Shown here: positions 1 through 32,128 of the stretch, piece after piece
Layout: every line of letters starts with the position of its first letter
Position numbering within the stretch: position 1 is the first letter of the stretch
Virus record (IMG/VR): IMGVR_UViG_3300030372_004077
Span: 1 to 40,658 of that record
Source of the DNA: a virus
Lineage: Duplodnaviria; Caudoviricetes
Direction: 5' to 3' (one strand)
Length of the DNA: 40,658 nucleotides
Notes under the pieces: generated by a model
Told to the model about the DNA's origin: nothing
Database searches by the model: none
Seen by the model: the letters and a program-made list of their open reading frames with translations, nothing else
Translations under genes and position numbers: made by a program

Positions 1-194
1 TTATAGGCTCTTAGGTCTTTAACCTTCATTGCTAAACCAAGGGCATTCGAGTAAGCCGCTTCTTTTGATGCATCTTGACCAGCAAAAGGTGTTCCTGAAT
101 TAGCTGAAATCCCTTTTGCTATAGCGCGAGCATCAGAGGAAATAAACGTCAATACAGATAACAAAGACTCGGAGATAGCCCCAAAGAATCCTCC
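1..194. repeat. Terminal direct repeat, copy 1 (circular overlap with 40465-40658)
   Basis: Bases 1-194 match 40465-40658 at 188/194 positions; the reading frame of the giant gene continues across the junction. Confidence 0.97.
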
Positions 195-3100
195 CCCGTC
201 TTCAGGGTCAGTGGCCTCGGTAAGTCTTTTTGTTATTCTTTCCTCTTCTGGTGTTGGCTCCCCCGCCTCTTGCCCTGTACTATACAGAAGGTCTCCTGCC
301 ATTTGCTGCTGAAGAGCCCCGACTCCAAAAGCTATAAGGTCTCCTGGCGACGGAGAGCCTTCTTGATAGGCCCTTTTAGCTTTTTTAATAGTAGAGTCTG
401 ACTGCCCTCCCATAAATAAAGGGTCTAGCTTTATTTCAGCTTGACCAAGAGAGTACAGCGACTCTTCCCTTGGGGGATTGTCTCCCCTTTTAAGGGCTTT
501 TCTTTCCGATTGGGTAGACCTTGTAGCCGTTATCATTGGCAGGCCAAGCGTAGCGTCAAAGTCTTCGTCAGTATCAAACACCTCAGACTCATAGACAGTG
601 CCTAGCTTTAAAGCAGACTTAGTGGCTTCTGTGGTGGCTGTAAGAAGGGTGCCATCTACCATTGCTCTAAATGGATTTTTTTGGAAATAACTCCCAAACG
701 CTTTAGTAGACCAAACCAAATGACCAGCAAAAGGAAAACCAAGTAACGGCATATCCCTTAGCTTTTGAAATATCGGAGGAATATCTGGGTGATCAAAGAA
801 AACTTTTCTACCCAGACTTGCCGCTTCGTTCTTATTAACCCCCTTATGCTTTGCAACTTCATAAGCATAAGCAAGCCTTAGAGTTGCATCAATCCCCCCG
901 TACACAGCAACAGCCTCATCAGAAATATTTGACAAAAAATCTTTTGTTTCGCCAAGTAACTGCTCACCTAGTGGCTGTATTTTTAGCTGGGCGCTAGATC
1001 TCTCTTGGCCTGGAAGCCTGCTTGTATTAATCGATGCACCGTATCTTTGAGCCGATGGTCTATCAGGGTCAAGGACAGATACAAGAGGCTCTGTCACCGC
1101 TTTCCTTTCTCCAGTAATCTTATCTAAAGCAACTCCCATTGGAGCAGCGCTTTCGTCTCCAGATAAAATAGAAGCCATGTAATCAGCCTGAGCATCAGCC
1201 AAAGTTTGCCCAGACCTCCCAGACCTACGCATTTCGAGGTCTCTAACTCCCCGCCCTGGCCCACCAAGAAGCTCCGAAAGCTCTAGAAGCAGTGGGTCTG
1301 AAGGAGTTTCTCCTCTTTTTATGGCTCTATTTGCCTCGAGCGCTAGCTTAAAGTACCGCATTGTTGCTGGTATTTTAGCCATTCTAGCTTGAACAAGAAC
1401 CCCTGAAGTAAAGTTTCTAGCCATCGTTCCATTTAAGAAAGAAATAACAGCAAGTCTTTTTAGTTGCCTGTTTGCTTTGGTTAAAAACCCTCCCACATTT
1501 AATTCACCTGGAAGGCTTTTTTCAAACACAGCGTCAAGAATGTTTTTTTGATGAATCAGACCATCAGCAACACTTCTTTCAATAAACAGATCGGGGACAT
1601 CGTCTATCAAACCAGGGTACTCTTTTGAAAGACGAGTCATGCTCTCAAAGCGTGGGCTAGATGTTGATATTCCTGGAGTTGCGGCTATCTCATCTTTAGA
1701 TAAGATCAACCCATTTTCCCTCAAAGAGTTAAGAAGCCTATAGTGCTCTACTCTTTTAAATAAATCTGAATGCGCTTTTTGTGAAGACTCAGAATATAAA
1801 GAAAAGAAGTCTTTTACCATATCAAAGCCAAGTCCAAACTCTCGCTCTTTATTTAACCACAACCTCTCTTTAAAGAACCTTCCAGAGCCTTTTGCTGATG
1901 GGGCGGGGATTGCCCCCTCCTCAACCTTTCTTAAGAGCGCTCTTGCTATGTCAATGGGAGCCATCCCATCCCGCTTAACTTTATTGACAACATTATCAGG
2001 AAAAGAAGCAATAACCATCGTTGCACTCATGTTGTCTTGTTGCAGCATTTGGTCAAAAGTAAGCTCACCCTTTTCTAATTTCTTAAACACTGAGTACATG
2101 TGGTCTAAGATAGCAGTCTCTGAAAAGTAAGCGCTCATGTACCCTGCTGTTTTATCTACAGCGTCGAACCCCTCAAGCTCCAAATCTCTTTTTCCAACAA
2201 CAGTGGACTTTTGGGACTGAGCCGAGTCTGCTTCTACTGAAGCAATAATCCCTTTGTTTCCTTTTGACTGGTAATCTTCGTTTATTCTTTGAGCATACGA
2301 AGCGGCTTTTTCTGCAGCGTCATCTCCCTTAAACTTCTTAACAATTTTTATTGAGCCGTCTCCAGTCCTGACAGCAACAACATTTTTTATTTTCGTTGTT
2401 TCTACAGACATTCTGTAGGCTTTTACTCCAGCCGCCAAGTTTGCGCCTAAAGACATAATCTCACTTTGAATTGGCCTAACGTATGTATTTAAAACACCTA
2501 AGAGGGTTTTTTCCGCGTCACCAATAACCCCGTCTATGTCTTTTTTAAAGTTAAACCTTATATCAGTAACGCCTTTTACTTCCCCATCAACAACCATAAA
2601 AACATTTTTTGCAGAACCAAACTCATCTTTTTTGTCTTGAATTAATTTCTTGAGATTTGAGTTCATTTCTATTCTGTTTCGCTTTTCTTGCGTAAGGGCG
2701 GCTGTTTTTGCCTCATTAGGACCTAGTCTACCAGTCCCCAACCCACCTGTGTATGCTGACCCATCTGGCAAGGTTCTAGACGGAGACAGCCCAGACCGCT
2801 CAAGAACTTGCGCTGCAGCCTCTTTGGCAACGGCCTGCCTTGCTGAAGGGCCAGTCATGTCGTCTAGCTCTTTGTTTATCTCATTAATTCTTTTTGTGTT
2901 TTCTTTAATTGTTAATGTGTAGCCAGCTATTGTGTCGGTGGCCTCTCTTGCGTTTACAAATTTTCCATCAGGAGTTTTGTATTCAATATCAAATATTTCA
3001 TTGATGTATACTCTAGACTTGCCTGTAGAAGAGCCGTCCGGCAAATCAACGTATGCGCCCTCCCCAGCAAATAATGCAGTTGCGACTGCCTCTTTAAATC

Positions 3101-6100
3101 TTCCAGACAGAGTTCCTCTTGGAGAGATTCTGATTACCGATTCGCCAGAAGAGTGCTGATCAAGGCCAACCTCTTGAAGAGACTTGTCTATGTCGAGCTT
3201 TGCTGCAACAGAGTCCTCATCAACACCTAGCTTACGAGCTAAAGCCCTAAGCTTAAACTCAAGTATCTCTGCCTTGCCTTGTCCTCTAATTACCTCCGCG
3301 TAAAGGTCTTCACCCAAAATAGAGGAAGGAGACATAAAGTTCTGAAAGACTCTACCAAACGATTTAGAAAAAGAGTTACTGTTTGTAGAGTTCATGTACA
3401 TGTAACGAACAAAGTCGCCCATCCAAGAAGGAAAATTAGTGAAGGCAAAGGGCTCTTTCATGAATTCAAGTGTTGCAAGCATTGAAGCTTCTAGCAAAGG
3501 TAGCATGGCCTTTGCAGCAGACTTGCCTTTAACCTGGTTTAACCTGTTCGAGATTATGTTTGCCGGCCTTCTTCCTAGCGCGACTCGAGTTAAACCGTAG
3601 GGAATGTCAGACGCAAACTTACCGGCAGTCATGCCCTCTGTAGATGCATCGACAGTTCCCTCATAAGGCATATCCTCCCCTCGTGTCTTTACTCTAATGT
3701 ACGGCATTTCAGGGCGAGACTTTCCTTTTGCGGCATACTGTTTTGACTGGGCGTCATCTAATCCCAACAAGGCGTACATGTTTACATCTTTCACTCCATT
3801 CGCAGCCATGTCTTCAGCGACGCTTAGCTTGTTTACCTCAGACTTAACTTTATCAACGGAAACGCCTCGGACCTCTGCTACTTTCTGTATTTCTTGATTG
3901 TATGCTTTTTTAAGAAAGCCAAGTTTAGATCTTTCCGCTTGTAAAACAAAAGAAGATATACTGTTTGGTCCGTCAACAGGAAGCTCTGGCATAAGGGCTC
4001 GATAAACCCTTGGGTCAACAATTCCATCTTCGGCGAGCGACCTAGCAAAGGAATGTCTTTGGTGTACCTCTCCTAAATGGTCAGCTTTAAACTTTTTTAA
4101 ATTAACTCTTATTGAACTAGATGTTGTCATGCCTGGGTCTGTGTAATAGCCAAGGTCAATTGCAATATCTCTAATTAAAGAGTCTAGTTTTCTCTGCCCA
4201 GGGGGCTTATATTTCTTGTTTGCTGCTTTTTTCTCTTTTATCTTTATCTGTTCAGCGTTTAATTCAGCTTTGATCGAATCAACTCTTTTGCTTCTGGCTG
4301 TCACTTGAGCTTGAGCTTTCTCAAATGGCTTGGATGTTGTTTTTTGAGCCACTTTATCAAGTGTTGGAGTAATAGACTCCATGATTGAAAATGTTCTATC
4401 TCCAGCCTCAGCCTCTTTTTGCTTCTCAAGCAAGATATCATCCACAACCCTTCCTGCAGCTTCATAAGCCTGGGCTGTCTGCTCGAGAGATCGACGGGAG
4501 GTGTCATCGAGCCCAACCTCTTGAGATTTTTTTCTTGCTTCTTTTGCTGCATTTTTAAGTGCTGTTGGGGTATCAACAACCGGAAAAGCTTCATCTGCCG
4601 TTACCTTTACTACAGCAGTCTTTTCAGGGATAGACTTTTCCCTTACAACTCCAGTCTCTAAAGCATCGTACTCTCCCCCAACTATCTTCCCAACCTCAGA
4701 AACTTTTTGCTTAGGAGTCATAGTTGGGTCGTTAACTGTTTGCTTTATTGATGGTGCTGATTTAGCTAAAGATATCGCGCCTTTTACAATAGGAGAAACA
4801 GCCGCTCTAGTTCCGCGTAATACGCCAGGAATAAAAATTGACATAACTCCGGGCATGTCTTCCCAGATTTTTTCAACCTCTTCGTCTGTTATCCCAAGAC
4901 CCTCTAGGCCTTCCGCACTTATTGCGTCAAAACTAAAAGCACCATCAACCTCAGCAAAAGGAAGCATAGAAGGGCCAAGGTATTTCTTTGCTCCAAGCAA
5001 AGCCATAAGAGCCATCTTGCCTGTTTCTTCAGGCCCCATCATTTTTAAGAAGCCCCTAGTAAACTCCTTAAGAACTGTATTGTATCTGTATGGACTTATT
5101 TGAGCAGCGTTAATGACATTGGCCGCCGTCTCAGGATTTTTCTGTGCTACTTCTCCAAGGACACCTTTTTTTATTTCTTCCTTTAATCTCTCTTTGTTAA
5201 CAGAATCAACAAACTTTGGCAGGTTGTCGTGGTATCTAAAAAACCTTTCTATGGTTGTGCTTGGCAAAGCAGAAGCGCTAACACCCTGCCTTTTCATTCG
5301 GTCAGAAAATTCTTTGGTCTGTGCCCTCCCTGACTCCCTTAGGGCCTGCTCTATTGCCCAGCCGCCAGGAGGAGGCTTGACAGGGCTATACCCCTCTAAA
5401 AACTCCCCATAAACGCTGTCTAAACCATCGACATATGAGTACAAAGCGAAGTCTTTTAAGAAAGAGTACACTTGCTCTACAGATGGCATTTTGCTGTCGA
5501 CTATCCGTTCCATCGACACAATTTGATCTTTGTTTAATAAAGCTCTTCCTACCGCAAACTTTCTTGCTCTGAGTATCTCTTTATGTCTTTTTTTAATGTG
5601 ATTTAACAGACCCTTTTGCCAAGGCACTCTGACGCTGTCTTGAGACATATACAGTATGTCACTTGATGTCATCTTTATGGAGTCTTCAATTCCGGGGATG
5701 TCTTTGTTGGGGTCAGGTTGAGGCTGATACGACCTTGCTGCAATTCTCTCTGCAGGCTTAACCCTTGAAGCATTAACCTCTCTGTTAAGAATTCCGGTAT
5801 CGTTTTCCGTGGCTGACTGCAAATAAGAAAGATTGTCATGTGGCTCACCAGGGTTTCTTGGCTTTCCTGCAAATGCCGCAACAGCAAGAGATACTGGAGT
5901 TAGTATGGTATTAAGGAGCAGCGTCCCCATCTGAGCATAAGTTCTTGCGGTTCTATCTCTAATGCCCTCGCCTGTTATAAGGACGTCTTCTGCCGTAACG
6001 TCATCAAAGTCATCCTTAATCATTTCGTAGTTTTTCTGTACTTTTGTGATTAAAGAGTTTGGGGCGTTTGCTTCAAACAAGTTTTTAATTACTCTGTTAA

Positions 6101-6875
6101 TTGCAAACTCAGCGTAATCCTCTCGGTCTGTTAGAGGTTTAACCCCTGGGGGTGTCAGTAAGTCACTATCAATAGTTGCTCTGTAGTCTCTAGACCCCTC
6201 TGGAGCTTTTATTTTTTCAGCCAGCTTGTCATAGACTCTTCGTCCAGCGAGTTCTGAAGTAGCATCAATGAAAACAGTGGCCACTATGTTTTCAGCTAGA
6301 TTGTTTTCATCAAGCTCTTTGTCTTTGTCATTTACATCAGAAGATGAATGCTTTAGAGAAAACTCTTCGTACATTGCGTTGACCCCGGCATACGGAGTAA
6401 ACAAAACGAGCCCTTGCTGCACTGTTGGGTTTTCATCTGCAGAGTACACCATTGGTGGAGCAAATTGGACATCCGGGCTGTCTTTTCTAAACCTTAATTG
6501 TGGAAACACCTCTCCAAAAACAGGGAAATCATAAGGCTCAGTTACTCTTTTAAATCGGTCTTCTTGGGCCTTAATTTGTTCTGGGGATACTTGAAGGCTG
6601 GGGTCATTAAAAACAGAATATTCTTCTTCTGGCTTTTGAGGCGGCAGCTCAATACTGCCCATAAGGTCTTGTTCAGTTGACTCATCAACATCGACTCTTT
6701 TGTCTTGGTCGTCGCTTTCAAGAGCATAAAGATAAGAATCAATTCCTTCAGGCGTGAGTGAATCTTTTTTTTGCTCAGGTTTTGCAGCTACTAAATCTTC
6801 GGGCTTGGGAAGCTCTTCTTCCTCGACACCTAAAGAGGAGTCATCAAAAACGCTATAGTCATCGCCCATTACCAT
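1..6875 (-). CDS. Giant internal virion/DNA-ejection protein, N-terminal ~2291 codons; continues across the circular junction to 40113 (total ~2408 aa)
   Basis: ATG at 6875 (or 6869), just after the upstream stop at 6878. Both ends read by eye have no stop, and the ORF track reports no closed ORF in this frame, implying it runs off the edge. It joins ...DLRAY/KQNF... of the 40113-40628 ORF. The segment LRLAYAYE...EAASLGRKVFFDHPDIPPIFQKLRDMPLLGFPF resembles C-terminal regions of large phage ejection/polyvalent proteins; position after the tail genes fits. Confidence 0.85.
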   Translation of the reverse strand, partial: MVMGDDYSVFDDSSLGVEEEELPKPEDLVAAKPEQKKDSLTPEGIDSYLYALESDDQDKRVDVDESTEQDLMGSIELPPQKPEEEYSVFNDPSLQVSPEQIKAQEDRFKRVTEPYDFPVFGEVFPQLRFRKDSPDVQFAPPMVYSADENPTVQQGLVLFTPYAGVNAMYEEFSLKHSSSDVNDKDKELDENNLAENIVATVFIDATSELAGRRVYDKLAEKIKAPEGSRDYRATIDSDLLTPPGVKPLTDREDYAEFAINRVIKNLFEANAPNSLITKVQKNYEMIKDDFDDVTAEDVLITGEGIRDRTARTYAQMGTLLLNTILTPVSLAVAAFAGKPRNPGEPHDNLSYLQSATENDTGILNREVNASRVKPAERIAARSYQPQPDPNKDIPGIEDSIKMTSSDILYMSQDSVRVPWQKGLLNHIKKRHKEILRARKFAVGRALLNKDQIVSMERIVDSKMPSVEQVYSFLKDFALYSYVDGLDSVYGEFLEGYSPVKPPPGGWAIEQALRESGRAQTKEFSDRMKRQGVSASALPSTTIERFFRYHDNLPKFVDSVNKERLKEEIKKGVLGEVAQKNPETAANVINAAQISPYRYNTVLKEFTRGFLKMMGPEETGKMALMALLGAKKYLGPSMLPFAEVDGAFSFDAISAEGLEGLGITDEEVEKIWEDMPGVMSIFIPGVLRGTRAAVSPIVKGAISLAKSAPSIKQTVNDPTMTPKQKVSEVGKIVGGEYDALETGVVREKSIPEKTAVVKVTADEAFPVVDTPTALKNAAKEARKKSQEVGLDDTSRRSLEQTAQAYEAAGRVVDDILLEKQKEAEAGDRTFSIMESITPTLDKVAQKTTSKPFEKAQAQVTARSKRVDSIKAELNAEQIKIKEKKAANKKYKPPGQRKLDSLIRDIAIDLGYYTDPGMTTSSSIRVNLKKFKADHLGEVHQRHSFARSLAEDGIVDPRVYRALMPELPVDGPNSISSFVLQAERSKLGFLKKAYNQEIQKVAEVRGVSVDKVKSEVNKLSVAEDMAANGVKDVNMYALLGLDDAQSKQYAAKGKSRPEMPYIRVKTRGEDMPYEGTVDASTEGMTAGKFASDIPYGLTRVALGRRPANIISNRLNQVKGKSAAKAMLPLLEASMLATLEFMKEPFAFTNFPSWMGDFVRYMYMNSTNSNSFSKSFGRVFQNFMSPSSILGEDLYAEVIRGQGKAEILEFKLRALARKLGVDEDSVAAKLDIDKSLQEVGLDQHSSGESVIRISPRGTLSGRFKEAVATALFAGEGAYVDLPDGSSTGKSRVYINEIFDIEYKTPDGKFVNAREATDTIAGYTLTIKENTKRINEINKELDDMTGPSARQAVAKEAAAQVLERSGLSPSRTLPDGSAYTGGLGTGRLGPNEAKTAALTQEKRNRIEMNSNLKKLIQDKKDEFGSAKNVFMVVDGEVKGVTDIRFNFKKDIDGVIGDAEKTLLGVLNTYVRPIQSEIMSLGANLAAGVKAYRMSVETTKIKNVVAVRTGDGSIKIVKKFKGDDAAEKAASYAQRINEDYQSKGNKGIIASVEADSAQSQKSTVVGKRDLELEGFDAVDKTAGYMSAYFSETAILDHMYSVFKKLEKGELTFDQMLQQDNMSATMVIASFPDNVVNKVKRDGMAPIDIARALLRKVEEGAIPAPSAKGSGRFFKERLWLNKEREFGLGFDMVKDFFSLYSESSQKAHSDLFKRVEHYRLLNSLRENGLILSKDEIAATPGISTSSPRFESMTRLSKEYPGLIDDVPDLFIERSVADGLIHQKNILDAVFEKSLPGELNVGGFLTKANRQLKRLAVISFLNGTMARNFTSGVLVQARMAKIPATMRYFKLALEANRAIKRGETPSDPLLLELSELLGGPGRGVRDLEMRRSGRSGQTLADAQADYMASILSGDESAAPMGVALDKITGERKAVTEPLVSVLDPDRPSAQRYGASINTSRLPGQERSSAQLKIQPLGEQLLGETKDFLSNISDEAVAVYGGIDATLRLAYAYEVAKHKGVNKNEAASLGRKVFFDHPDIPPIFQKLRDMPLLGFPFAGHLVWSTKAFGSYFQKNPFRAMVDGTLLTATTEATKSALKLGTVYESEVFDTDEDFDATLGLPMITATRSTQSERKALKRGDNPPREESLYSLGQAEIKLDPLFMGGQSDSTIKKAKRAYQEGSPSPGDLIAFGVGALQQQMAGDLLYSTGQEAGEPTPEEERITKRLTEATDPEDGGGFFGAISESLLSVLTFISSDARAIAKGISANSGTPFAGQDASKEAAYSNALGLAMKVKDLRAY

Positions 6876-21186: not shown

Positions 21187-23274
21187 CTACCTCTGTATCC
21201 AAAAATTTAACATTGCATTAGAATTATAATTTTTATTTCTCTTATTATTCGCCTTAACGGTCGCCCTTAAGTCATCAAATGTCAAGACTTTAGGTTGAGC
21301 CATTGGTATCTCCTTTCTGCATTTTAAACAGACACCTCCCGCTACTACAGCGTGTTGACACTCTGGCTCTTTTTCTTCTGGGGGCTGATAAAGCGTAGAC
21401 CCCATGTATGGCAACTGACGACTGGCGTATATACCTAGCATTAAACAGGTTACCTCATCATCATGATATCTTTCACCTGTCACAGGGTCTGTACCATCCA
21501 TAGCCTCTGGCAACATCCTCGAGCTTTTCTTAACAAAAACTTCTAGCTCTCTTAACGTGTTCGGGTTTTTAACAACACACATTCCTTTTTTAAAAAATGC
21601 AGTAGCTGCACTAACTGCCTCTGATTTACTTCGGCCAGTCATCCTCCAACCTAAGTATTTTGTTGGAGCTTCGTTCTGGATGTTGTCTGTATTCTTACGT
21701 CTAAAGATTCGATGAAGCGGGTAACACGACCGGAACAGGGCTAATGCTGCGGCTCCACATGAGTTAACCTCCGGTATCTGCCAAGCCATGTTATAATACG
21801 CCCCAAGGGCAATGGCTTCAGAGGCAGACTCTTCTGGGTAGCACTTCTCTCTAAAGTGGGCTACCTGAGTTAAAACATCTCCCCTTTTATAAACATGGAT
21901 AACATTATAATCGCACTGGGCGCTTTGTCCTTCAGCGTAATCTGATGAAACAATGTACTCTTCTCCAGGTATAGGGTCTTCGTATATCCTTATCGGTCCA
22001 AAGCTCTCAGGAACAAACTTAAACATATCAGGCGTTACCTCATGTTTAGTTTTGCTAACCTGGCTCATCATAGCTTCTGGGTCTGGCTCTATAGCCTTCC
22101 TGCCATCCCTGGTTATTAGCTCACCCCTTACCGCCTTAGGTTCGTCTTTAATTCTTTCCGCTTGAGAGGCAACCTGACCCATATCAAAGATGGTGAGCGT
22201 AGAAGACATAAAGGCTTCACGCCAATGAGTGGGGTACTGGTTTTTAAATACCTTGGACTTACCGTCACAACGGTCCTGAATAGCCCAGCGTCTCCAGTCA
22301 ATCCAACCCATAGGATGAAGCTTTTGAGAATCAGGTTCTTTATTCCACCTGGGAACAATATGTGTTTTTAATAAATCAAACTCATCGTCATCCAGGTTTA
22401 ACAAAGACGAATACTTCTCTAGCCCAGTACTGTCTTTTCTCGAGAAACATTGAAGCCAGTCATAAAATAGGCCTTGGTTTTCTTTAGTAGGCTCTTGCCA
22501 GCACTGCTGCTCATCATCAAGCCACGATATAAACACAGGCTCAAACTCAGAACGACCAGCAACAGCCTCTTCCCATAAACGAGAATAAGAGTCACCACGG
22601 CTCTCAGCAGTTGTATCGATAACAATTGCACCTGTATTCTTCCTAACAGTAGGAAACATCTCTTTAATAATTGTGCTTTGATTACGGTACTTTGCAAACT
22701 CTGAGAGCAAAAGGTACTGAATAGTAGCACCCGTTCTTGCTAAAGGAGTTCTTTCTGTGAAGATAGATATGGTTGAGTTAAGACCGCTGTTTGGTTTAAC
22801 ACCACCTCTTTCCCAATTAAGAAGTTCTTCTTGGGGGATATCCCTTCTAAACTCCATAGGCTCTTTGAACGACCTGGAGTTACCCCAGCGCTCTGCTCTT
22901 AACGTAGACGGGTAGTTGTTATAGAATATATGGTTTCGTCTGTGTATCTCAGCAGCCATGTCATCTAGCTGCGCTCCAATAACTACGTTTGTGTTTTCTG
23001 TTAAGGACGCTTGCCTAAATGCATCCATACAAAAGAACGTAGTGGAGCCAATACGTCTGGCCTTGCAAACAACAATACGAAGAAAGCCCCTGCTAAACCA
23101 TTGCCTGTTGACAGCTTCAGCAAGTCTTTGTTGGACTCTTCTTAATTTAACTCTGGCAATTGGCCCATCTTCTGGGGCGATGTGAAGTGGGGCTATGTCG
23201 TTTTCAGCAAAGAACGATATGTCAGAAAGGCAGTCTTGCCTAAACTTCTTAACATGTTCACTCTTTACTTCCAT
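21187..23274 (-). CDS. terL: Terminase large subunit (695 aa)
   Basis: LRRVQ Q-motif, Walker A KARRIGSTT, Walker B LLLSE, coupling motif DTTA, RNase H-like SSDYAEG...CDY and HDDEV. Confidence 0.93.
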   Translation of the reverse strand: MEVKSEHVKKFRQDCLSDISFFAENDIAPLHIAPEDGPIARVKLRRVQQRLAEAVNRQWFSRGFLRIVVCKARRIGSTTFFCMDAFRQASLTENTNVVIGAQLDDMAAEIHRRNHIFYNNYPSTLRAERWGNSRSFKEPMEFRRDIPQEELLNWERGGVKPNSGLNSTISIFTERTPLARTGATIQYLLLSEFAKYRNQSTIIKEMFPTVRKNTGAIVIDTTAESRGDSYSRLWEEAVAGRSEFEPVFISWLDDEQQCWQEPTKENQGLFYDWLQCFSRKDSTGLEKYSSLLNLDDDEFDLLKTHIVPRWNKEPDSQKLHPMGWIDWRRWAIQDRCDGKSKVFKNQYPTHWREAFMSSTLTIFDMGQVASQAERIKDEPKAVRGELITRDGRKAIEPDPEAMMSQVSKTKHEVTPDMFKFVPESFGPIRIYEDPIPGEEYIVSSDYAEGQSAQCDYNVIHVYKRGDVLTQVAHFREKCYPEESASEAIALGAYYNMAWQIPEVNSCGAAALALFRSCYPLHRIFRRKNTDNIQNEAPTKYLGWRMTGRSKSEAVSAATAFFKKGMCVVKNPNTLRELEVFVKKSSRMLPEAMDGTDPVTGERYHDDEVTCLMLGIYASRQLPYMGSTLYQPPEEKEPECQHAVVAGGVCLKCRKEIPMAQPKVLTFDDLRATVKANNKRNKNYNSNAMLNFWIQR

Positions 23275-24185: not shown

Positions 24186-24201
24186 TGGCACAGCGTTTGC
24201 A
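24186..24201 (+). promoter_or_regulatory. sigma54 (-24/-12) promoter motif 1
   Basis: TGGCAC-AGCGT-TTGCA, an exact match to TGGCAC-N5-TTGCW. Confidence 0.75.
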
Positions 24202-24349: not shown

Positions 24350-24494
24350 CGCATTGTCTGGCCTGAATCATGGGTTAACAAGGGTTCTTTGGGGAAGGGG
24401 AATAGGGGAGTCAAGTATATCGAGGGGGTACCCCTAGGCATTTGGTGTCACCCTTACCCTCGCATATAGTAACTCTGCAGAGAGTTACGGATTC

Positions 24495-24547
24495 ACGTAT
24501 GGTACCATATATGGTCACTCTGAAACGTATGGTACCATATATGGTCA
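24495..24547. repeat. Two exact 23-bp direct repeats with nested palindromes
   Basis: ACGTATGGTACCATATATGGTCA at 24495-24517 and 24525-24547. Confidence 0.95.
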
Positions 24548-24735
24548 TTTATTACAGGGACCCTAAGACCCCGTGATAAACGCAACACTGGAAGCCGTAG
24601 GCCATGAGGTTAACGGAATGCCCCTTTAAACGCCCTTGTGGGTTATAGGTATACTTACCCCTTCCAAACCCCTTTACGCGCACGCGCACGCGTAGCCAAG
24701 CCCCTTGCCCGTTTTGTCACTTTGGTCAATTATTG

Positions 24736-24828
24736 GTGACAATTTGCGCACCGATGCACTGCGGTCCAATTGTGCAGTATATCGCCCATATTGGCCAATT
24801 CACCTGTGACAATTTGCGCACCCATGCA
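24736..24828. repeat. Two 23-bp direct repeats (22/23 identical), candidate activator/operator sites
   Basis: GTGACAATTTGCGCACC(G/C)ATGCA at 24736-24758 and 24806-24828. Confidence 0.9.
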
Positions 24829-24840
24829 ATAGTGATGCCA
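24825..24840 (-). promoter_or_regulatory. sigma54 (-24/-12) promoter motif 2, facing the late arm
   Basis: Minus strand reads TGGCAT-CACTA-TTGCA. Confidence 0.7.
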
Positions 24841-24964: not shown

Positions 24965-24980
24965 TGGCATTGGCATTGCA
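24965..24980 (+). promoter_or_regulatory. sigma54 (-24/-12) promoter motif 3, driving the early arm
   Basis: TGGCAT-TGGCA-TTGCA; predicted +1 near 24991, just before a 5' hairpin and the first early gene. Confidence 0.75.
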
Positions 24981-24997
24981 ATACTACAGAATTGAAA

Positions 24998-25028
24998 GGC
25001 GGGGAAACCTGCCACGTTCTTTGAAAAC
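24998..25028 (+). promoter_or_regulatory. boxB-like GNRA hairpin plus rrn-type boxA (nut-like site)
   Basis: GGCGGG-GAAA-CCTGCC (24998-25013) followed by GTTCTTTGAAAAC (25016-25028). Confidence 0.55.
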
Positions 25029-25458
25029 TAGACAGCGCGTAACGATAGGGACCTATATAGGAGGCTATCATGAAAGAAAAGAAGACACGCAACGCACGAC
25101 GCAAAGCGGCCCAACGGCTCCGTAAGGAATGGAAAGGTAACGATGCTCCGAGTGTTGCAACACTAAAGAAAAGGAAGAAGGCAACCCAATGGGTGGGGCT
25201 TCAAGATGTGATGCGCGTGGTGTTTGTTCCTGAGTGCAAGAAAACCGTTGCCAATGGTCGCGGGTTTCATCATAAGCACAAACACCACAACACATCGTCG
25301 CACGTAGAGCTTGCACGATACGAACGAGAAACCAACAGGATTGCGGACCGTATCGAATACGCATCGGAACCAGTGAAGAAGAGAGAACAATTCAGGACGG
25401 GCCTTGTAGTTTACAAGAGAGACCGTCGAACCTTTTAACCTGTTACGCGCTGTCTAGT
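25027..25458. repeat. Perfect 17-bp inverted repeat enclosing the first early gene
   Basis: ACTAGACAGCGCGTAAC (25027-25043) and GTTACGCGCTGTCTAGT (25442-25458), then A and T9 (25460-25468). Confidence 0.95.
25070..25438 (+). CDS. Basic protein with N-terminal arginine-rich motif; candidate antiterminator/RNA-binding protein (122 aa)
   Basis: AGGAGG RBS; TRNARRKAAQRLRKEWKGN resembles the lambda N ARM; central His-rich HHKHKHH. Confidence 0.6.
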   Translation: MKEKKTRNARRKAAQRLRKEWKGNDAPSVATLKKRKKATQWVGLQDVMRVVFVPECKKTVANGRGFHHKHKHHNTSSHVELARYERETNRIADRIEYASEPVKKREQFRTGLVVYKRDRRTF

Positions 25459-25543
25459 ATTTTTTTTTGTTTCATCTCGTCGCCTGTCCTTTCCTATGAG
25501 GGGGGGAGGGGCTACGGGATGTGACTGAAAAAGGAGGTGTTAC

Positions 25544-31921: not shown

Positions 31922-32128
31922 GGGGTGAGTAGGGTTGCTCTTACTCTCTCTAGGGGCATAGGTTGGTGGACGCATCAACTGACCGGGAGCATGGCCTGGG
32001 CCATGTGGCAACCACTGGAAAGTGGGGAGAAGAGTTAACCCTGATTCTTCTCTGCCGTCCCCACCCGGAAGGCGCGGGTGACACCTACCTTAAGTGGTGT
32101 GACTGTCGGGAGAGTTCGGCGTTTTTTT
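31922..32128 (+). ncRNA. Candidate structured RNA: eight consecutive hairpins ending in T7
   Basis: Hairpins at 31922-31950, 31961-31980, 31990-32005, 32012-32025, 32026-32053, 32062-32080, 32081-32100 and 32105-32120, many with G-U pairs valid only on the + strand. Confidence 0.6.

Follow-up and report, generated by a model that had tools for sequence, protein, structure and literature searches.

Why should the first early gene of a phage lie wholly within a predicted long-range RNA helix whose leader strand begins in the tail of a boxA resembling those of bacterial rRNA operons? The window analysed here, the whole stretch of 40,658 nucleotides, is a near-complete phage genome (99% complete, with a 194-nt end repeat) in which the minus strand carries the structural genes (terminase at 21187-23274, portal and capsid) and the plus strand carries the replication genes (Cas4-like nuclease, SSB and DnaB). 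The helix-enclosed gene stands at the head of this plus-strand early arm. A first-pass annotation of the sequence had listed a sigma54 motif, a GAAA hairpin, a boxA, two arms, an ORF and an A-T9 tract at this locus, and every one of these elements proved to be present where it had been placed (Table 1); two structures absent from that list, the SD hairpin and the long downstream hairpin, were added here. Full copies of the sequence occur in public runs from two marine metagenomes of the same study, one of which may be the source of the window, and no RNA dataset is among the public runs listed as carrying it. The DNA copies of the gene that were found (L001 and L192; L252 is the same contig as L001 and so is not a further copy) are identical to the window over the part compared and so show no covariation of the two arms.

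Table 1. Elements that open the early arm, listed 5' to 3' (window coordinates).
Feature	Position	Strand	Remark
Sigma54 (-24/-12)-type promoter motif	24965..24980	+	probable start site near 24991
GAAA-tetraloop hairpin, 6 bp, in the boxB position	24998..25013	+	-11.9 kcal/mol
rRNA-type boxA, GTTCTTTGAAAAC	25016..25028	+	sequence match to bacterial rRNA leaders
Arm 1, leader strand, beginning in the boxA tail	25027..25043	+	
Weak hairpin over the Shine-Dalgarno sequence (SD, 25059-25064)	25044..25068	+	predicted to stack on helix/arm 1
First early ORF, 122 aa	25070..25438	+	
Arm 2, trailer strand, 3 nt past the stop codon	25442..25458	+	exact reverse complement of arm 1
U9 tract (T9, preceded by an A)	25460..25468	+	candidate pause/release site of a terminator with a 398-nt loop
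Long irregular hairpin, no U after it	25469..25535	+	candidate RNase III site or 5' shield of a read-through message

The enclosing helix and the control region

No exact inverted repeat in the 40.6-kb genome is longer than the 17-bp arm pair, the runner-up having 14 bp, and inverted-repeat pairs of 17 bp are expected 0.003 times within 1 kb and 0.06 times at any distance. The long-range stem proposed in the first-pass annotation therefore holds up: it is an exact complement, and its stem score of 21.8 tops the maxima of 20/20 shuffled genomes, narrowly (highest 21.4). Leader/trailer pairing around this gene ranks first among the 46 SD-bearing ORFs, at -47.3 vs -32.7 kcal/mol for the next. Folding, which had been suggested as a check, gave a z of -6.5 for 24992-25535, with predicted probabilities of 0.93-1.0 for the arm base pairs in a transcript ending at U9. 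The helix is 17-18 bp long and closes a loop of 398 nt; in folding, the 5' half of the SD is unpaired at 0.17-0.38 without the trailer and at 0.03 with it. The helix is real, and it probably acts in RNA.

The T9 that follows arm 2 is the longest T run on the plus strand of the genome and lies 1 nt from the helix. It is one of two T runs of at least 7 in the early arm; the other is the T7 of a weak hairpin at 32104-32128, between a replication-initiator-like gene and SSB. As in an intrinsic terminator, whose stem is directly followed by 7-9 U, the 17-bp stem is followed closely by a U tract, but the 398-nt loop is far from the 3-5 nt given for canonical intrinsic terminators in PMC3643576. Folding also offers the U9 tract other partners, namely the A residues of boxA or the base of the downstream hairpin, which can absorb the U tract when the hairpin spans 25460-25535 (z -6.15). 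In its shorter form (25469-25535), the base of this hairpin overlaps the SD of the next gene. Rfam returned no match at the gathering level, and its sub-threshold, miRNA-like matches fall on the downstream hairpin alone.

Strict sigma54-type motifs occur three times in the genome (24186-24201, plus; 24825-24840, minus; and the promoter motif of Table 1, plus), all in the control region and against 0.55 expected; 2 of 100 shuffles matched this count. The minus-strand copy faces the late genes, and the one at 24186 recurs, along with its AT-rich tract, in the related genomes G013 and G012. A sigma54-like motif is found as well at the early-arm head of the relative G018 and before boxA in L005, a locus from an unrelated phage. 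A palindrome pattern that we take to be that of an activator site is matched upstream in G013, G015 and G018 and has no match in the window, and neither an RNase III nor a sigma54 activator encoded by the phage was found in the genome.

Several other features were noted in and beyond this region. A purine-pyrimidine alternating CGCACG motif (24676-24693) and a CCCTTAC motif (24446-24460) recur in most relatives; several contigs begin, stop or break near them, and the region is a probable genome end or packaging site. A 23-bp direct repeat with a palindromic core lies at 24495-24517 and 24525-24547, and CCATATATGG repeats in G013 and G018 are related to it. At the start of the window, an unannotated ORF of at least 2291 aa (3-6875, minus strand) runs off the window end.

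The boxA and bacterial rRNA leaders

The boxA 14-mer is present as a single exact copy in the phage genome. A host search returned a sole genome match, 21% identical, which was used merely as the centre of a boxA survey. This survey covered 151 bacterial genomes from the phylum of G027, and 16 of the 151, which are a convenience set and not the host, carry the 14-mer. Of 25 boxA loci fetched, 20 were scanned for rRNA genes, and the 14-mer precedes such genes in 11 of the 20 (ten before 16S, at 47-97 nt, and one before 23S, at 412 nt), in agreement with the earlier comparison with rRNA leaders. Window positions 25016-25036 match one bacterial 16S leader, L240, at 20/21 nt.

Three rRNA loci were tested for an enclosing helix, which is clear in L246 alone. 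There, the leader and trailer of 16S form a 40-bp helix that begins at boxA and keeps the register of the window helix, with boxA itself forming the helix base, and the trailer ends in TAGT and then U residues, like that of the window. L249 has no leader-trailer helix, and the L247 contig stops 30 nt past 16S, too early to show one. By its sequence, the boxA of the window is of the rRNA type. The locus is not an rrn operon, as it encloses a 122-aa ORF, but it appears to work like the boxA/leader-trailer module of one.

The first-gene protein and the recurrence of the helix

The enclosed gene encodes a protein of 122 aa with a net charge of +21 and an N-terminal Arg/Lys-rich helix (11 K+R in 25 residues); it is a likely nucleic-acid binder. 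Its family has seven members at 35-57% identity (an eighth candidate, a weak match, is not in the alignment), and the conserved core, W..G.V..VV..P...K....G.GF..KH, is the middle of the protein, beyond the ARM. In Pfam, P0001-P0004 have no match at E<=1 except one DUF at 0.14, so that neither lambdoid N family (PF11438 or PF25694) is matched, and PF11438 is absent from 5/5 genomes. PHROGs gave nothing for P0001 under E 0.1, a PDB sequence search gave nothing under E 0.5, and GenBank phages gave no match for P0001 or P0007. AlphaFold, another check suggested at the outset, yielded low-confidence models (pLDDT 51.5 and 56.5) in which a predicted helix at residues 7-19 reaches 74-79 and the rest stays below 65, values to which a shallow alignment may contribute; with these models Foldseek found nothing at E<=0.001. 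The ESM look-alikes are N proteins (nearest named clusters N36 and N_peptide) at scores of 0.79-0.80, a level that one in three shuffled proteins attains, and the assignment to this family is rated probably wrong by the tool.

The first-pass label of an N-like ARM protein is thus borne out in size and in the Arg-rich N-terminal helix, and not in sequence, where no match to N was found; membership of the N family itself is supported neither by Pfam nor by the ESM scores, which are in the noise range. The protein resembles N in build and position, but the locus does not have the boxA-then-boxB order of a lambdoid N, since here the hairpin precedes boxA.

Relatives were collected by a terminase search, which gave 24 loci in 22 records; eight were fetched whole and three more in part, and eight genomes, the window among them, can be read at the point where the early arm begins. 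An Arg-rich first gene inside a helix is present in three of these eight (the window, G016 and G018), and the remaining five (G004, G005, G008, G012 and G019) have neither feature. Because G004, G005 and G008 look closely related, the five helix-less genomes are not five independent cases. The helices around the first genes of G016 and G018 are about 30 bp long and unrelated in sequence to that of the window, and the leader/trailer pairing of these genes ranks 1/69 and 1/93, respectively; the three runner-up duplexes inspected are ragged, not continuous helices. The family profile of the window protein does not align to the first proteins of G016 or G018, and a profile search found a homologue in 0/23 related records. 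The first proteins of all three genomes tie for the top N-terminal K+R content, with 11/25 residues, a value that 5 of 457 ORFs reach. These observations support the conclusion that the Arg-rich first gene and the helix go together in this phage family, and the repeated use of the design with unrelated arms and unrelated Arg-rich first genes suggests selection for architecture rather than sequence. No boxA was found in G016 or G018 despite their ARM gene and helix, so that the earlier tie between an ARM gene and boxA does not extend to them.

In G016, the second gene has a helix of its own (19 bp exact, about 24-27 bp extended), which directly follows gene 1 (L059, reverse strand 2008-2955) in the manner of tandem 16S/23S; no close relatives of this second gene were found. 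Long structured non-coding leaders precede the first early gene in G018 (L060 385-640) and G008 (L053 3661-3815), and in G008 109 nt that contain no ORF are also closed off by a 23-bp helix. The late region of G012 (L055 11442-11705) has an 87-aa, extremely Lys/Arg-rich ORF with a ragged predicted leader/trailer duplex.

Unrelated phages were reached by two scans. A search for sigma54 plus boxA gave 24 loci, one of which is the same phage and one of which, L005, has a convincing helix: a sigma54 motif and boxA stand before a 23-bp helix that encloses a gene for an acidic 113-aa protein, with a hairpin-U terminator directly after arm 2. A viral scan with the boxA 15-mer returned 120 of ~370 stretches, with 103 distinct matches; among these listed matches, 3/103 passed the stem threshold vs 1/103 controls, and 100/103 were below it. 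A single ORF is enclosed by a 35-bp helix in L091 and by a helix of ~26 bp, with one bulge allowed, in L147, which probably has a separate terminator-like hairpin at the place corresponding to that in L005. Three loci from unrelated phages (L005, L091 and L147) show the order boxA, arm, ORF, arm, each around a gene that encodes no ARM protein. Hairpins 5' of boxA are also present in L091 and L147, and SD hairpins are similarly predicted in G018 and L005. L147 (G025) and G026 have two or three exact boxA copies, and both copies in L147 follow a hairpin with a GCAAAG motif.

We counted seven helices in all (the window, G016 twice, G018, L005, L091 and L147), leaving out as doubtful L125, where arm 2 lies 162 nt past the ORF, and L111, with 14 bp and arm 2 59 nt past the stop. 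The sense-strand duplex is the stronger one in 6/7, via G-U pairs; this asymmetry is reversed for the second gene of G016 and marginal in the window (-34.4 vs -33.3). The helices of the relatives contain G-U pairs and bulges, and arm 2 lies within 1-10 nt of the stop codon in 6/7 helices. The window helix is the shortest of the seven, the others having 23-35 bp, and it is the only one followed by a run of at least 8 U; L091 has 6 T in the 10 nt after its helix, paired with the leader in the extended fold. The terminator proposed in the first-pass annotation thus fits the window, where the T9 abuts the helix, and is not supported as a general design.

Proposed action of the helix and its place among known systems

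The explanation that we prefer, and to which we give about an even chance, is that boxA-loaded Nus factors promote closure of the helix, and that a sealed mRNA of one gene results, its 3' end fixed either by the helix with U9 or by RNase III. The order at the early-arm head is promoter motif, hairpin, boxA, arm 1, SD, ORF, arm 2 and U9. Host Nus factors would load at boxA, keep arm 1 at the polymerase and pass it to arm 2, as in an rRNA precursor. By analogy with E. coli work, the boxA-loaded complex should transcribe fast, resist Rho and loop out RNA, and it would probably delay translation of the gene just behind boxA. Arm 1 and arm 2 are predicted by folding to pair as arm 2 emerges, and the helix would form without need for the encoded protein. 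Leader-trailer helices are described for bacteria in PMC10250234, and the rRNA Nus complex is reported to bridge the 5' and 3' helix halves and boost RNase III cutting (bioRxiv 2026.03.17.712431) and, in contrast to the complex formed with N, to leave the exit channel open (PMC8632103). From the bridging of strands and the open channel we infer that boxA loading favours helix closure; the first-pass proposal that Nus loading at boxA blocks arm pairing runs against both properties.

Antisense oligonucleotides can replace a terminator hairpin. The short helix with U9 may pause or release a share of polymerases, replacing the separate terminator of L005. Because the window helix is the shortest, is marginal for RNase III, is the sole one with an abutting U9 and stands at the place of the L005 terminator, helix and U9 together likely end a share of the transcripts. 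Read-through polymerases would make the downstream long hairpin, and host RNase III could split gene 1 there or at the helix; relatives with 23-35-bp helices that lack a U tract would depend mainly on cleavage. The product would be an mRNA made stable by its paired ends, from which a highly basic first protein is made in abundance.

Several observations count against this explanation. The 17-18 bp of the helix are below the minimum for RNase III, given as a 22-nt helix in bioRxiv 2026.03.17.712431. The rRNA complex is described as shifting NusA away from hairpin stabilisation (PMC8632103), an effect expected to make termination weaker, and the 398-nt loop is far above the canonical 3-5 nt. BoxA is missing from G016 and G018, the helix is missing from 5/8 family genomes, and 100/103 viral boxA matches fall under the stem threshold. 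The boxA was matched to a convenience set of bacteria, only 1/3 rRNA loci tested shows a clear helix, and the strand asymmetry is marginal in the window and reversed for the second gene of G016. Finally, this explanation does not account for why helix and Arg-rich cargo go together so tightly in the family.

In lambda, the tL1 terminator stands after N, and the N leader has an RNase III site. The window could hold a similar switch, in which the helix with U9 is a tL1-like terminator and the ARM protein binds the GAAA hairpin, joins boxA-Nus, blocks the duplex and opens the early arm; we consider this possible but doubtful. The layout does parallel lambda pL-nutL-N, where nutL lies upstream of N (PMC5725501), and 122 aa with an N-terminal basic helix and a low-confidence remainder (pLDDT 56) agree with N, which is described as an unstructured protein of about 110 aa (PMC8632103). 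The nearest named ESM clusters point the same way, as does the joint presence of helix and Arg-rich gene in 3/8 genomes and of neither in five, with tied-top K+R content. However, no N-family profile matches the protein, the ESM scores are at noise level, and the conserved part is the middle of the protein, not the ARM alone. The order of hairpin then boxA is that of rrn, the reverse of lambda nut (PMC8632103). G016 and G018 have neither boxA nor a U tract, and their proteins are unrelated to that of the window, whereas L005 has sigma54, boxA and helix around acidic cargo. Further, no strong conventional terminator was found downstream in the early arm, which counts against a strong need for antitermination and leaves the opening of that arm, as first proposed, with nothing of the kind to open.

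There is likewise a limited chance that the gene itself is the loop of a terminator, that its stem is closed at the polymerase when Nus factors bring in a strand transcribed 400 nt before, and that the gene's own ARM protein, unrelated to lambda N, turns the complex into an antiterminator and opens the early arm of a sigma54-driven phage, which would be the logic of N and tL1 built from rRNA parts.

A translation-coupled attenuator is improbable. Under this explanation, a ribosome ending the ORF, whose footprint would reach over arm 2, allows read-through, and repressed translation lets the helix form and stops transcription at U9; the repression would come from the Nus loop or, as negative feedback, from the ARM protein acting on the leader of its own message. 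The stop codon does lie close to both arm 2 (3 nt) and U9 (21 nt), a closeness of stop and arm 2 that recurs in 6/7 helices, and in folding, helix formation increases the pairing of the SD. In PMC5725501, a boxA shortly before the start codon is reported to repress translation of suhB and lambda N. Yet the attenuator requires a U tract, found at 1/7 helices, and 122 codons make a long timer.

The chance is similarly slim that pairing of the 5' and 3' ends shuts the SD into its hairpin and exposes the mRNA to RNase III, so that the protein is made in a short pulse. This has a precedent in the S. aureus icaR mRNA, whose 5' and 3' UTRs are reported to pair into an RNase III substrate (PMC3868564), and it would fit the drop in unpaired SD with the trailer and the SD hairpins predicted beside arm 1 in G018 and L005, but the SD itself is no pairing partner of arm 2, its hairpin is weak, and boxA and U9 are left unexplained. 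A DNA invertible segment, or chance, is very improbable: the 17-bp core is a flawless inverted repeat that exceeds shuffled genomes by a small margin, but the 99% complete genome has no integrase, resolvase or other tyrosine or serine recombinase that our search detected, two spanning contigs show no strand-change joint (though rare variants are lost from contigs, and the window may derive from one of the two), the helices of relatives hold G-U pairs and bulges, and a flip would turn the gene away from its promoter and leave boxA outside.

The preferred explanation, Nus-promoted closure of a helix that seals a one-gene mRNA, would place on an mRNA a combination regarded as dedicated to rRNA, namely boxA/Nus with a leader-trailer helix, to which the exceptions are a few boxA-repressed mRNAs and the lambda nut sites. 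As the first-pass annotation had supposed, the open-access literature on boxA, leader-trailer helices and large-loop terminators on phage mRNA gave no phage gene enclosed in this way. The 480-nt, clonable locus could serve as a test of whether a Nus loop delivers a distant strand on an mRNA, and of whether a duplex with a 400-nt loop beside U9 can terminate transcription. A possible spin-off is a simple end-sealing cassette for bacterial expression.

Among known systems, E. coli suhB shares a boxA within about 50 nt of the start codon; in the account of PMC5725501, that boxA represses translation and triggers Rho termination, and no enclosing helix is described there. The icaR mRNA shares the pairing of mRNA ends, but as characterised in PMC3868564 it pairs through a short anti-SD motif, whereas the window has a 17-bp helix beside the SD, and boxA in addition. 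The T7 sites are local hairpins, unlike a gene-enclosing helix; the 25469-25535 hairpin of the window, between early genes, could play the same part as these. With lambda pL-nutL-N the locus shares a promoter, boxA and hairpin, a small basic ARM-type first gene and a candidate terminator, and it differs in the reversed order of boxA and hairpin, in the tetraloop, in the lack of sequence kinship to N, in a helix that brackets the whole gene instead of being local and in the integrase, of which none was found.

The bacterial rRNA operon leader has the same hairpin followed by boxA just past the promoter and the same long-range helix running from the boxA tail, in the register of L246, and enclosing one product. 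The window differs from it in its protein-coding cargo, its sigma54-type promoter, a helix of 17-18 bp vs 40 bp in L246 and a trailer that does not pair with the boxA core, abuts U9 and has no identified boxC. New at this locus are the sigma54-type promoter, the abutting U9 and, across three genomes, the pairing of such a helix with unrelated Arg-rich first genes.
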